Shown here: positions 1 through 28,967 of the stretch, in pieces
How the letters are laid out: the number at the start of each line of letters is the position of its first letter
Position numbering within the stretch: position 1 is the stretch's first letter
Assembly (NCBI GenBank): GCA_963828125.1
Contig: CAWHDP010000002.1
Location: forward strand, 1,152,001 to 1,216,000
DNA length: 64,000 nt
Reading direction: 5' to 3'
DNA from: an uncultured Chlamydiae bacterium
Lineage (GTDB): Bacteria; Chlamydiota; Chlamydiia; Chlamydiales; SM23-39
The notes under the pieces: model-generated
The model's database searches: none
What the model was told of the DNA's origin: nothing
Seen by the model: the letters and a program-made list of their open reading frames with translations, nothing else
Program-made: the position numbers and the translations under genes

Positions 1-3000
1 GATCGAGCTACTCAGAGTGGAAGAGGCTCCGCTCTGTCCAAAAGATCCAGCCGTTACACAAGGAGCAGAGAGGGTAAAAACACCCGAGTTCACAATGTTA
101 ATGGAGCCAAGGACGGTGGTCGTAACAGCCCCGCTGAACGTCACGTTCGTACCGGTGAGATTGATGCCGCTTGCTGTATTGGTGTTCGTCGCTCCGCTCA
201 AAGTGGTGGTCCCTGTGCCGCCTGTCTGGTCGATCGATGCGGCGTTGATGGATCCAAATGTTGCGGTGGCGGTTTCAGTGATGAGGAGGGCTCCAATGCG
301 GGTATTCGATCCAATGGCGCCAGTCACTGTAATATTGTCAGCTCCGCTTGCGAGCGTCAGGTTTTGGGCCCCGTCTACAGAACCGCTGATCGAAATAAAA
401 CCAGGGCCGGGCCCGCTATTGAGCGTCAATGGGGCGCTCAGACTCACGATTCCAGCGAAGCTCATATTTTGGTTGAGGGTCAAAACAGTCCCGCCGATCA
501 AGACGGGGCCCAAGCCGCTTTGATCAAAGGGGCCGGCCGATTGGATCGTTCCAGAGGCGATGGATGTGAAGGCGCCCGAGTTCCCGATCACAATCCCCCC
601 AGTCCCCCCAGCGGTCCAAGCGGCGCTCCGGATGATATTATTGGCGGTCAAATGAATGCCGAGAGGGCCGCTTGTCGAAATGGGGCCGCTGAAGGTCGAA
701 GTGCCGCTGCCGCCCGATTGGGTGATGGAGGCGGCAGTGATCGGCTGCTGGGCCGTGAAATTCACAGCAGACGTGATCGCTATATCGCCCACCGCAGTCT
801 GGCTCCCAATCGGGGCGCTGAGGAGGATATTTCCCGTCCCCGCATTGAAGCTGAGGGGATAGGCGCCATCCACAGTCCCTGCCAGTAAAATATCCCCAGA
901 GCCAGATCCGGTGTCGAAAGCGCCGTCGTACAAGAGGGTGATGGGGCTGGAAAACGAAATGTTTTGGCCTGCTGTCGTAATCGTCCCTGCAAAAAAGACG
1001 GAGCCTGTCCCGTTTTGCGTATATGTGCCGTCTATCGAGGTCGTATTGATGGAGGTGCCGGTGATCGTCCCTGAGTTCGTAACGACAAAATTGCCCCCAT
1101 TGGTGGTGATCAAAGAGCCGCTCCGGACGAAATTGACCCCGGCCAATGTAATGCCAGCAGAGGTGTTGGAACTCAAATCCCCCACCAATTGCATCGTCCC
1201 CGACGCTGTCGCATTCAGTGAGGCGCAGGCAAAATTTTGGATCGTAATGTTGTGGGCGCTAGAGACAACCGTTGTGCCGAGCGGGGTATTCCCCCCTGTG
1301 TTTCCAAGGAGGGTGATATTTCCTGTGCCGGCGAGCAGCGTCAAATAGCCTGGGCCGTCCAAGGTGCTAGAAAATGTGATCGACTGGTTGTTCGCCGCTG
1401 TATTCATCGTGGCGCTCATCCCCGACACGCTCACCGGCCCTGCAAATGAGATCGAGCCATTATGGGTCGTCACCGATCCAGAAAAAGCGGTCGAGCCTCC
1501 GCCTGTTTGATTCAACGACCCGTCTGGACTTGCCGTTCCAGCCAATGTGAATACGCCGCTATTTTGAACCGTGATGGAAGAGCCGGCTTCTGTCTGTAAG
1601 GAGGCGCCGCTCTCAATCATCAGGTTCGTCCCTGTGAACTGAAAACCGATATTATTCACAATCGAGCTGACGCCTGTCACAGTCGTGGTCGCTGAGCCAG
1701 CTTCCTGGATGAATCCGTCGAGCGCCATATTGCCAATGGCCACATTGTTCGCACTTGCAATGACGAGCAGATTGGGCCGGACGGTCGCATTGCTGCCGAT
1801 ATCTCCGGAAAATGTAATATCGCCCGTTCCTGCCGCAAGGGTCAGGTTTTGCGTGTCGCCGAGAGCTCCGTTCACAGCCCCGGCAAACGAAATATCTCCT
1901 CCTCTCGCTCCCGTCGAGATGACCGAGTTCGTATTGAGCACCACCTCTGTCGGGAAGGAGAGGGCAGTATTGGTCGAGCCGATGTTTCCTCCAACATAAA
2001 GGGTCGCAGCGGGATTTAAAGTAATGGTTCCGGCGATCAAATTCCCATTAAGGGTCACTGTGCCTGCTGTGATGGCAACGCTCGCAAATTGTCCATTGCC
2101 GGCAAGGCCAATTGTACCGACCTGAATGTTGCCAGAGCTGCTCGAAAGAGTTAGATTCCGCCCGCTATTTTGCCCAGCTTGAATCCCAAGCGCCGTTAAA
2201 TTGCCCCCACCGGTATTGAGCGTCAGGTCGGCGCCTGTCCCAAGAGAGATCGTCCCATTTTGGAATGTGAGATTGGCCCCGTTGCTTGAAATTGTAGTGG
2301 CGGAGCCTGCACTGAAATTGAACGTTGCTGGAGAATTGTAGGTTTGGGCGTTGCCGTTATAAGTGGTTCCCGCAAATGTCATACTGCCGCTCGTTGTGAC
2401 CGAGACTGTCCCCGATACGCCAGGCGCGCCTCCCCCCATCCCATTCAAAGAGACCTGATGGGCTGTAATCGCAAGCGAAGCGAGTGGGCTCGAGACCCCG
2501 ATCGGCGCTCCCACCGTCACATTGCCGCTTCCCGCTGTGAGGGTCAAGCCAAACTCCCCGTTGATCGTATTCGAAATCGAAATTCCCCCTGTTCCTCCAC
2601 TGGAATCGAGGATTGCATTGCCTAAAAGAACCATTGGACTGAGGATCACAAAACCGCCCCGGGCGCTCGTCGACGCCGCGAAATTCGCTATCCCCGTGCT
2701 GCCGGGAAGTTGAATCCACTGTCCGTCAATCGAGCTGGTATTGCCCGCGTGCCCTGTCAGAGGTCCGCTATTGAGGATAGTGAGGCTCCCTCCATTGCTC
2801 GTCACTAAAGAGCCTTGTCTATAAAAACTATTGCCGGTAATGCTAATCCCAGCAGGGCCGTTGATATCGATCGCCCCAATCGACATAAACTGTCCGGTGA
2901 GGGCCTGTTGAGTGAATGAAAGGGCCGTGACAGAGCTCAAGTTCTCGTTATTTGCGCTAACGACAGTGATGGCGCCTAAACGGGTTCCCCCTCCCATGGC

Positions 3001-27282: not shown

Positions 27283-28967
27283 AAAGGCTGTCCTGTTACC
27301 TTGATGTAGTACATTGTTCCATTCGATAAATCACTGTGGTTCAGAGGAAATCCGACATCCACGCTCCAATTTAAAATCCACGGCCCCCTGAAGCGGAGTC
27401 CTACCCCAGTTCCCCATAAAAACGTATCGGTTCCCCCATAATAAAAGGCGCCGCCCGAGTCGAGAAAGGCAGTGAATTGCAAGATCTCTCTCCATTTTTT
27501 CTTTGCCACAGGAGCCCTTACATTGGCAAGGAGCGGAGGAGGGACTCGGAGCTCCACGTTCCCGTAGTAGCCGCTATCGCCGAGCGAGACCGCTAAGGGA
27601 AAGCCCCTTACGGTGTCGGAGCCGCCGATATAAATTTGTTCAGGGATCGCTAGTTTATAAAAGCTCCCTTGAGCTGAACCGTGAAGACTCAAAATCCAAT
27701 CGGGGGCCAAAATGTGGAGATGATCGTAATCGGCGTTGAATTTGACGAAGAGCCCCCCGGCCCCTGGCCTTGAACACTGCCGGCTCACCGGATTCATCCC
27801 CCCTAAAAAGTCTGGAATTCCGACAGCTGCCCGCACATTCAAATAATCGCGGCCGCTCCGATTGCCGAACCGATCCATTAAACAACCGAACGTAGCCACC
27901 CGCAATTTATCAAAAGAACTCAAAGTCCCCAGCGCATAGTTTTGGATCTGTTTGATATCGAAATAACCGAAGAGATCGATCCGGATCGCCCTAGATCGGG
28001 TGAGAGCATGAACCGCTTTCAAAGTGCCGATGTTGGAGACCCCCTTGAGACGGAGGCTGTAGAGCTCCTCGACCTTGAATTTGGAAAAAAGGTAAGCCAG
28101 CTCAAAAAAATCGCCATTGCGGCTCACCGGAATGCGATAAATTAAATCGGTAAAATAGAGAGCATTCAGAGGAAAGCCGACCACCTCGGCAATCGAGAGC
28201 GTATCGCCATAAGCGATCAAATTGCCCGCATCCAGCCGTCCCCCGATCCGGACATTCGTCGTGATATCCCTGCCGTAATTATTGCCGTTCAAATACAGAT
28301 GCAGCGGCCGCCCATCCTCCACCTTGATGATGACGTCGGCTGTCCCCACCTCACGCCCCTTAGCAAAGACCGCCGCCGCTGCCAAGTCGCTATTTTCATT
28401 CAGCAGCAGCATCGCCCGCAAAAATGAATCATAGCGAAGAGCCCTTCCCCGCAATCTCGTGAAGTAGCTCCGAATGAACGGCTCGCTGTAGTGTTTGGCC
28501 CCCTCAATGGTGATATCGCCGAGGCGCCCCTCGATGACTCGGATGAGGAGCACCCCATCCCTAACGGTTTGCGGAGGGGGGTAAGCGCGCGCTAAAAAAT
28601 AGCCCCTTTTCGCATATTCAGCATCGATTTTGCCGCAAAGAGCATAAATCTCCTTCAGACAAAGTTTACGATCTTCGAATTCTGCCACCCATCCCGCAAC
28701 GATTTTTGGAGCCACCGCCTCAGCTCCCTCGATCTGGATGCGGAGCACCTCCACGCAGCCCCCATCGGGGATCTCAAGCCGCTCTTTCGGAATATCAATT
28801 TGAATAGCCGGAGCCTCCCGGCCCTCTTCAAACGGTTTCGCCTCATACTCTTTTTGCAATTCCCGCTCGACTACGCCCGCCGACGGAACTGGAGGAGGAA
28901 GAGAGAAAAGGAGCTGGGCAAAGAAATAAAAAATCCACCGAATTCGCATAGAGAGGAGCATATACAA
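27279..28967 (-). CDS. TpsB outer-membrane translocator (ShlB/FhaC/HecB family)
   Basis: POTRA-type segment YAKRGYFLARAYPPPQTVRDGVLLIRVIEGRLG, loop-6 motif DTVRGFP, C-terminal Phe; lies directly upstream of the TPS-domain ORF. True start may be ATG 28961 or 28949. Confidence 0.92.
   Translation of the reverse strand: MYMLLSMRIRWIFYFFAQLLFSLPPPVPSAGVVERELQKEYEAKPFEEGREAPAIQIDIPKERLEIPDGGCVEVLRIQIEGAEAVAPKIVAGWVAEFEDRKLCLKEIYALCGKIDAEYAKRGYFLARAYPPPQTVRDGVLLIRVIEGRLGDITIEGAKHYSEPFIRSYFTRLRGRALRYDSFLRAMLLLNENSDLAAAAVFAKGREVGTADVIIKVEDGRPLHLYLNGNNYGRDITTNVRIGGRLDAGNLIAYGDTLSIAEVVGFPLNALYFTDLIYRIPVSRNGDFFELAYLFSKFKVEELYSLRLKGVSNIGTLKAVHALTRSRAIRIDLFGYFDIKQIQNYALGTLSSFDKLRVATFGCLMDRFGNRSGRDYLNVRAAVGIPDFLGGMNPVSRQCSRPGAGGLFVKFNADYDHLHILAPDWILSLHGSAQGSFYKLAIPEQIYIGGSDTVRGFPLAVSLGDSGYYGNVELRVPPPLLANVRAPVAKKKWREILQFTAFLDSGGAFYYGGTDTFLWGTGVGLRFRGPWILNWSVDVGFPLNHSDLSNGTMYYIKVTGQPF

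Follow-up and report, generated by a model that had tools for sequence, protein, structure and literature searches.

For the two-partner secretion (TPS, type Vb) family, Sec export of the TpsA protein, its recognition by POTRA domains and its folding during secretion are established; TpsA proteins range from 100 to 650 kDa, the largest classical ones being CdiA proteins (180-650 kDa), and FHA is 500 Å long (PMC5422565). We analyzed a 64,000-nucleotide stretch of DNA, termed the window (positions 1,152,001 to 1,216,000 of contig CAWHDP010000002.1, assembly GCA_963828125.1), whose minus strand carries a tpsA gene for a protein of 9,950 amino acids and about 948 kDa, above that range. Judged by its TPS domain and an adjacent POTRA/ShlB transporter gene, the locus is a type Vb TpsA/TpsB pair, as a first-pass annotation of the window had proposed. 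Type Vb secretion itself is known; what is new is the size of the protein, its C-terminal module and how widely TPS occurs among environmental chlamydiae.

The closest described system is EtpA/EtpB of enterotoxigenic Escherichia coli. EtpA has 1,767 amino acids, with four 228-residue repeats and 25.3 residues per turn (PMC10284417). The giant TpsA resembles it in the TPS domain (the closest match, E-value 3.6e-60), an interdomain helix, a WLLD-like motif, a beta-helical repeat stalk (Z 17.8) and an adjoining tpsB, but has about 100 degenerate units. HMW1/HMW1B and HxuA/HxuB of Haemophilus influenzae share the TPS subfamily and a C-terminal Cys pair, and the C-terminus of HMW1 and HxuA is expected in the periplasm (PMC5422565); here, in contrast, the Cys hairpin appears to cap the helix, a Pro linker and a conserved aromatic motif come after it, and the protein is far longer. 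CdrA/CdrB of Pseudomonas aeruginosa is also alike: the stalk of this type Vb fibrillar adhesin varies in length between conserved ends, and a Cys pair lies near the C-terminus; CdrA is about 220 kDa and 70 nm long, has a cysteine hook and is released by LapG at TAAG (10.64898/2026.07.13.738186). C-terminal anchors in the TpsB pore have been described for HMW1, HxuA and CdrA (PMC5422565; 10.64898/2026.07.13.738186). FHA and CdiA, too, are long beta-helical TpsA filaments, but belong to another TPS subfamily, and the present locus has neither toxin nor immunity gene. Haemagglutinin-like proteins of giant size have been described before (PMC11573180; 10.64898/2026.03.19.712371), and the beta-rich symbiosis proteins Cag_663 and Cag_665 of Chlorobium chlorochromatii have 36,806 and 20,647 amino acids (10.64898/2026.03.19.712371), so size alone is not unprecedented. 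Unlike the giant TpsA, the Chlorobium proteins are multi-domain, come with a TolC-like gene of type I secretion and have no TpsB. The Pmp autotransporters of the Chlamydiaceae are beta-helical type Va surface proteins, with the barrel fused to the passenger, that form paralog families. In the giant TpsA a fused C-terminal barrel was not found: the last 450 residues gave no Pfam or NCBIfam match above cut-off, and none appears in the model. The same genome also has autotransporter-like frames elsewhere (recognized by eye), among them a gene at L004 (G000:C2:840489-846337, where G000 denotes the source genome) in two overlapping frames of 1,427 and 599 codons.

The giant gene and its transporter

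From TTG 27282 to base 1 of the window (1..27282, minus strand; amino acids 1-9094) the tpsA frame holds 9,094 codons and zero stops in translation, under many antisense shadow open reading frames (ORFs), just as first described. No in-frame stop follows until a TAA at G000:C2:1149430, 2,570 bases past the left edge of the window (G000 comprises 2.37 Mb in 2 contigs and is 95% complete). The gene is the longest stop-to-stop frame of the genome and makes up 1.26% of it. It is intact and not an assembly artefact, because the longest exact repeat within it is 37 bp and contig depth is flat: Logan contigs of the best-covering public run, X1, fill 30 of 30 bins over window positions 8968-28967 at a depth of 9-13 (18 in one bin). 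Over the same 20 kb, of 30 kb, contigs of 4 public runs show zero insertions or deletions. An expanded repeat or a joining of separate genes could appeal to the fact that none of the short-read contigs covers the 30-kb gene end to end, and to X1 being possibly the source of the assembly itself; yet four other genomes have frames of 9,032-10,804 codons among the matches listed, and we regard such an error as next to impossible. The best long self-match is 73%, and the repeats are old as far as their sequence tells. A single study supplied the four best-matching runs, whose label is soil metagenome; we disregarded X5, a marine-labelled run with share 0.16 and depth 0-2.6, as evidence of habitat, and no RNA run containing the locus is among the public runs listed. 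The coding strand has an in-frame run of nine G at about 23485-23493, a possible slippage site, which is unbroken in the run contigs aligned.

The N-terminus begins with a putative short signal peptide, recognized by eye (amino acids 1-16; 27235..27282), that ends Ala-Leu-Ala-Ala before a conserved LP mature start. The TPS secretion domain follows at amino acids 32-260 (26503..27189), with NPQG at 99-102 where the first-pass annotation had placed it, and matches PF05860 (E-value 2.8e-32) and TIGR01901 (1.8e-22). Pfam detects this domain only if the N-terminus is scanned alone; scans of 4,000-residue pieces miss it, and a TssD match from such a scan was below threshold and rejected. The secretion region extends past the domain up to WRLDP (amino acids 407-411), within an interdomain region (25918..26064) that has short helices at residues 409-412 and 427-432 of the N-terminal model and a pair, Cys432/Cys455, retained in 19 of 21 aligned relatives. 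In sequence the TPS domain also matches the HMW1 pro-piece (E-value 3.1e-38) and HxuA (5e-24); Foldseek with the N-terminal model gave EtpA at 5.9e-23, HMW1 at 4.2e-19 and FHA at 1e-3. By sequence and predicted fold, then, the domain is of the HMW1/EtpA/HxuA subfamily, well apart from FHA and HpmA; the closest proteins of solved structure are adhesins of this second TPS subfamily.

The stalk spans amino acids 435-9697 (1..25980, continuing past the window). A profile built from 19 units finds 101 matches of 80-100 residues, together 8,773 residues, with a composition of 28% Ser+Thr and 0.6% Lys+Arg over the stalk. AlphaFold models, which span 1,146 of the 9,950 residues of TpsA, are beta-helical at amino acids 16-815 (predicted local distance difference test score, pLDDT, 83) and 9605-9950 (pLDDT 87). 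The VIA-align match to the EtpA repeats cited above is restricted to residues 1-285 of the C-terminal model, the last 285 folded residues with the tail excluded, and has a root-mean-square deviation of 3.3 over 254 residues; Foldseek with the C-terminal model returned no match at E-value 0.001, and no Pfam or NCBIfam family scored above cut-off on stalk and tail. The stalk repeat alone also matches cyanobacterial and Omnitrophota haemagglutinin-like proteins that are without the tail. At 20-25 residues per turn and the beta-helix rise of 0.48 nm per turn, the computed length is 187-236 nm. The filament would thus approach the width of a chlamydial elementary body (about 300 nm) and be some four times as long as FHA, in keeping with the exceptional length first proposed for it.

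The tpsB gene (27279..28949, minus strand) encodes a 556-residue transporter of the Omp85 family with POTRA_2 (E-value 4.4e-15) and ShlB barrel (3.5e-18) domains and further matches to CdiB, TpsB4 and FhaC; it belongs to a conserved chlamydial TpsB clade. The gene had been drawn to a TTG at 28967; the transporter is there, but an ATG at 28949, which gives the 556 residues of the protein collection, is the likelier start. The overlap TTGA reported earlier joins the two genes (tpsA start TTG 27282-27280, tpsB stop TGA 27281-27279) and suggests translational coupling; AGGA, resembling a ribosome-binding site, lies 8 bases 5' of the TTG (27291..27294). Ahead of tpsB, an AT-rich gap contains a promoter-like TTGACT-16-TATTTT (28968..28995, by consensus match only), in a region with 9 promoter-like sites against 3.8 +/- 2.0 in shuffles. 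The gene after tpsA is convergent and overlaps its stop (L001:14231-17446, plus strand); it has 1,071 codons, is Pro/Gln-rich with internal repeats and matches no family. Upstream of tpsB, at 29134-36159, a glycosyltransferase gene of family GT4, three of GT2 and a Gfo/Idh/MocA gene surround dnaB. A role for these glycosyltransferases was set aside, the linkage not being conserved. A search for an HMW1C-type glycosyltransferase (PF18254) gave no match, though no control matched either; the upstream gene is of GT4.

The C-terminal module and its transporter

After the end of the beta-helix come only 79 residues, a module (amino acids 9872-9950; G000:C2:1149430-1149669, minus strand, outside the window) recognized by sequence, profile and model. 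It consists of a Cys9872-x11-Cys9884 hairpin, a Pro-rich linker, an aromatic motif FAAPGFENSQFNLASDYYFYPYFYD, here FNLASDYYF, and a short basic terminus. In the model the hairpin forms the last part of the helix, with pLDDT 93-97 (model residues 261-280); the helix is mostly above 90, and linker and tail modelled alone reach 40-53. A toxin or an anchor had been suggested for this end of the protein. Of these the toxin falls away: Pfam, NCBIfam and the sequence of the last residues gave no toxin domain, and an ESM Atlas search with the last 136 residues gave no usable match. The anchor has gained a probable candidate in the conserved tail.

A profile of the module, built from the last 250 residues of six sequences, matches 48 of 400 genomes of the phylum (a floor; the search scored at most 6 candidates per genome) and 200 of 1.84 billion representative proteins. 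The tail motif occurs in 96 of the best 150 of these 200 matches, at a median distance of 24 residues from the C-terminus. This protein and two seeds are counted in the 96, and the calls are pattern-based, a few being doubtful. Of the 96, 72 have Cys-x11/12-Cys, 11 have a spacing of 13-22, 10 have no Cys and 3 a single one, while among 30 genome loci (6 of them profile seeds) 23 keep the pair, 3 lose both, 3 shift the first Cys and 1 is without the motif. The cysteines thus change as a unit, as would a disulfide-bonded pair. Conservation of the tail contrasts with stalk lengths that vary from about 900 to 10,800 residues; in 49 sequences the linker has 13-44 residues (median 30), and the basic end is net positive in 41. 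Named tail-bearing records are labelled Chlamydiales, Rhabdochlamydiaceae, Simkania, Simkaniaceae and, once, Verrucomicrobia, the tail of this last record being identical to one in a genome of the present phylum. At L056:9971-11749 and G355:C16 a TpsB (amino acids 1-468) is fused in frame to a TpsA tail, and at G010:C9:463842-464015 a 101-codon tail-only frame stands directly behind a tpsB; read as deletion remnants, these suggest that giant genes are lost by deletion.

TpsB relatives fall into one group 39-61% identical to this TpsB, with all others at 20-32%. In a quick tree of 45 TpsBs, 17 beside tail-bearing TpsAs and 19 beside TpsAs without the tail fall on opposite sides of a branch with support 99, a split reached in 0 of 500 label shuffles; 9 rows are unlabelled, and position was the sole criterion for choosing 10 of the 17 tail-linked TpsBs. 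Modelled together, TpsB and the last 111 residues of TpsA scored 0.48 as a complex, which is weak support, against 0.00 for the best control; 116 of 157 solved pairs reach the mark for such scores, as do 2 of 215 mismatched ones, and passes at 0.60 or under comprise 18 of the 157 solved pairs and both mismatched ones. The runs agree in at least 54% of contacts, with a partner pLDDT of at least 42. Taken together, the tree and the prediction are compatible with a tail that may dock on its own type of TpsB.

The genome holds a second large TpsA (G000:C2:1445381-1460141, minus strand; L002/L003) of about 4,900 codons, split between overlapping frames of 2,591 and 2,358 codons, with near-identical tandem repeats (488 bp exact) and no adjoining tpsB. 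Its tail follows the same plan, with a helix end and a Pro-rich linker, but carries a different motif; this tail type is found in 13 of 91 genomes of the family. An orphan TpsB (G000:C2:1582946-1584589, minus strand), 24% identical to that of the window, is probably its transporter, judging by relatives: one of the two best relatives of the second TpsA, in G013, adjoins a sister of the orphan.

Secretion, retention and role of the filament

On balance we favour a coupled type Vb unit whose product is a tail-tethered filament for host attachment. TpsA is almost certainly secreted through the adjacent TpsB. To judge from the signal peptide it would cross the inner membrane by Sec; POTRA domains of TpsB would then recognize the TPS domain, and the protein is predicted to fold outside as a single right-handed beta-helix of roughly 190-240 nm, capped by the Cys9872-Cys9884 hairpin. 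The Pro-rich linker would thread the TpsB barrel and the FNLASDYYF motif latch onto this TpsB clade, leaving the filament on the cell with its N-terminal end outward; retention by the C-terminal module is probable. By analogy, it would most likely let the extracellular infectious form reach a eukaryotic host surface from a distance and make initial contact, probably by way of glycans as EtpA does, and we lean towards attachment to a host, which may be a protist as first suggested, as the main role.

Several observations weigh against this reading. Pfam, NCBIfam and motif scans found neither a distinct adhesion domain nor RGD in TpsA, and EtpA is described as a secreted bridging adhesin (PMC10284417). 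One giant frame, of 10,234 codons in G221, ends without the tail, and 2 of 12 examinable tail-bearing TpsAs (the first copy in G110, and that in G178) have no TpsB just upstream, three further loci being cut by contig ends. The complex prediction is not only weak in score but yielded no contacts. As kin share labels, the TpsB tree shows co-inheritance of tail and transporter type and not their co-evolution, and 16 of its 19 no-tail labels come from the genome search that scored up to 6 candidates per genome.

The anchor might instead be a classic cysteine hook, in which, as in HMW1, HxuA and CdrA, the Cys-x11-Cys loop itself is kept in the periplasm and plugs the pore, the tail being secondary. 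The TPS subfamily is known for such anchors (PMC5422565), and the pair occurs in 72 of the 96 tail-bearing matches and changes as a unit; however, the hairpin is confidently modelled within the folded helix end, 10 of the 96 keep the tail without any Cys, and the larger, 22-residue N-terminal Cys loop, conserved in 19 of 21, must be exported. Nor was LapG (PF06035) found in the genome, in a search whose control matched in 1 of 14, and there is no TAAG near the C-terminus (the last is at amino acid 7997), so that a CdrA-type system released by LapG was rejected. We consider such a hook unlikely. Release of the filament, perhaps with re-binding as an EtpA-like bridge and a tail that only times secretion or folding, would agree with the published description of EtpA, the nearest protein in sequence and fold, as secreted (PMC10284417). 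A conserved linker and motif that track one TpsB clade argue against release, as does, weakly, the predicted complex of TpsB and tail, and shedding a protein of 948 kDa would come at a high cost with a genome of 2.4 Mb; release therefore seems to us quite improbable.

Rather than a host adhesin, the filament could be a shield, spacer or self-aggregation fibre for survival outside the host. The stalk is nearly uncharged and rich in Ser and Thr, TpsA has 242 N-x-S/T sites where shuffles give 189 +/- 11, the locus has glycosyltransferase genes immediately upstream, and beta-helices are able to bind one another (PMC5422565). But in the loci read from relatives those genes do not adjoin tpsB, tpsB is preceded by a promoter-like gap of its own, and an excess of sequons would be expected from beta-helix turns, and we hold this role to be rather unlikely. 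Very improbable is a CdiA-like delivery of a C-terminal toxin or small effector, for all that CdiA proteins are the largest classical TpsAs (PMC5422565) and that the variable, mostly basic end could act on the host. The residues left after the helix match no family, VENN and ELYN (a VENN-type motif) were not found in TpsA, the C-terminus is conserved and not polymorphic, and the TPS domain is of the other subfamily; no immunity gene lies directly downstream, where the neighbour is convergent. A folded C-terminal toxin is refuted, and a CdiBAI system was likewise rejected. Haem or iron capture has in its favour that HxuA is of the same TPS subfamily and that a TPS operon of Rhabdochlamydia helvetica is annotated as weakly huxA/huxB-like (PMC6490308), yet the similarity to HxuA, a 96-kDa protein, ends by profile position 302 of 786 and domain scans of the neighbours found no haem receptor gene, which leaves it more improbable still.

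The filament bears on how environmental chlamydiae locate and attach to their hosts, most of which are unknown. A 948-kDa passenger also tests how much one TpsB can export without an energy source, and the module, short and conserved, offers a testable anchor candidate as well as a means of recognizing a chlamydial TPS subfamily. Genes of this kind readily escape notice: short-read assemblies break at them, and Pfam fails when the protein is scanned whole. Tentatively, environmental chlamydiae might possess widespread and barely described type Vb filaments, up to dozens per genome and up to about 1 MDa, lost in the Chlamydiaceae, as their main host-contact apparatus, held by a novel sort of anchor made of a Pro-rich rod in the pore and a tail motif specific to the TpsB subtype, as a matched lock and key; we think this generalization possible but somewhat doubtful.

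Occurrence and origin in chlamydiae, and other loci

The first-pass annotation took the genome to be chlamydia-like, and it is chlamydial by its four full-length nucleotide transporters and the labels of its TpsB relatives. The nearest named TpsB locus is labelled Chlamydiota (the locus search returned 2 loci), and other named relatives are labelled Chlamydiota, Chlamydiales, Rhabdochlamydiaceae and Parachlamydiales, with three Verrucomicrobia and one Anaplasmataceae. PF05860 is present in 179 of 400 genomes of the phylum, so that the rarity in chlamydiae implied earlier is not supported. By family, it occurs in 50 of 68 genomes of the window's own family, 63 of 90 in f7 (probably Rhabdochlamydiaceae, from labels on matching proteins), 23 of 35 in f23, 8 of 8 in f26 and 11 of 16 in f37, and is low or absent in f22 (3 of 46), f19 (0 of 23) and f20 (0 of 29). 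One f20 genome, of 1.0 Mb, carries PF07577, which we take to be a marker of Chlamydiaceae, and f20 is therefore probably that family. Among 150 listed of 464 matches, other frames above 9,000 codons are found in G281 (10,804), G376 (10,734), G221 (10,234) and G343 (9,032), in three families. A probable further giant of about 29 kb lies in three frames (2,857, 2,735 and 3,475 codons) at G387:C3:726152-755092. G010, G011, G014 and G338 each have 27-33 candidates for a TPS domain or, for the N-terminal region, 39-48 matches (the latter, in three relatives, being matches and not copy numbers), a Pmp-like expansion of TpsA in this family.

Recent horizontal origin from outside, the other point that a survey and TpsB tree were to address, is not supported by sequence comparison, because G+C at third codon positions is like that of housekeeping genes (0.64 against 0.61-0.68) and the 120 listed TpsB relatives, leaving aside the protein itself, are 52-71% identical. 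In the unrooted tree, of chlamydial TpsBs only, holding each family together in the tail-linked clade was rejected by approximately unbiased (AU) tests (p 1e-4, 2e-9 and 6e-5) made after the larger tree had been seen; this means either that genes moved from one chlamydial family to another or that the paralogs are old and some were lost.

Such giants, which prior description would have made less novel, do not appear to be well described. A literature search found no paper on giant or expanded chlamydial TPS (5 of 16 supplements of PMC8242063, which may list type Vb systems, were outside that search), and the sole mention of chlamydial TPS found, in the part of the source consulted, is one sentence on R. 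helvetica (PMC6490308). The comparative chlamydial papers name, in the portions seen, type III secretion, MOMP and a small adhesin and no type V system: "type V" and "hemagglutinin" have 0 occurrences in the main texts of PMC8242063, PMC9816063 and PMC11070183 as available, and "type V" has 0 in the accessible part of PMC9723776. Some members of the family already bear the database label filamentous haemagglutinin protein.

Elsewhere in the genome, four copies of a gene of 2,820-2,828 codons whose products start MKWQRFF, two of them nearly alike, lie at C1:391254, C2:596319, C2:963089 and C2:1279851, and there are several RHS-like frames of 1,200-1,850 codons. Within the window, a SET-domain gene (39608-40318, E-value 2.6e-15) and a weak Fic-domain gene (61087-62268, E-value 0.001) are candidates for host-directed proteins, and transposase genes of the ISL3 (56946-57719) and DUF4277/DDE (59270-60871) types are also present.

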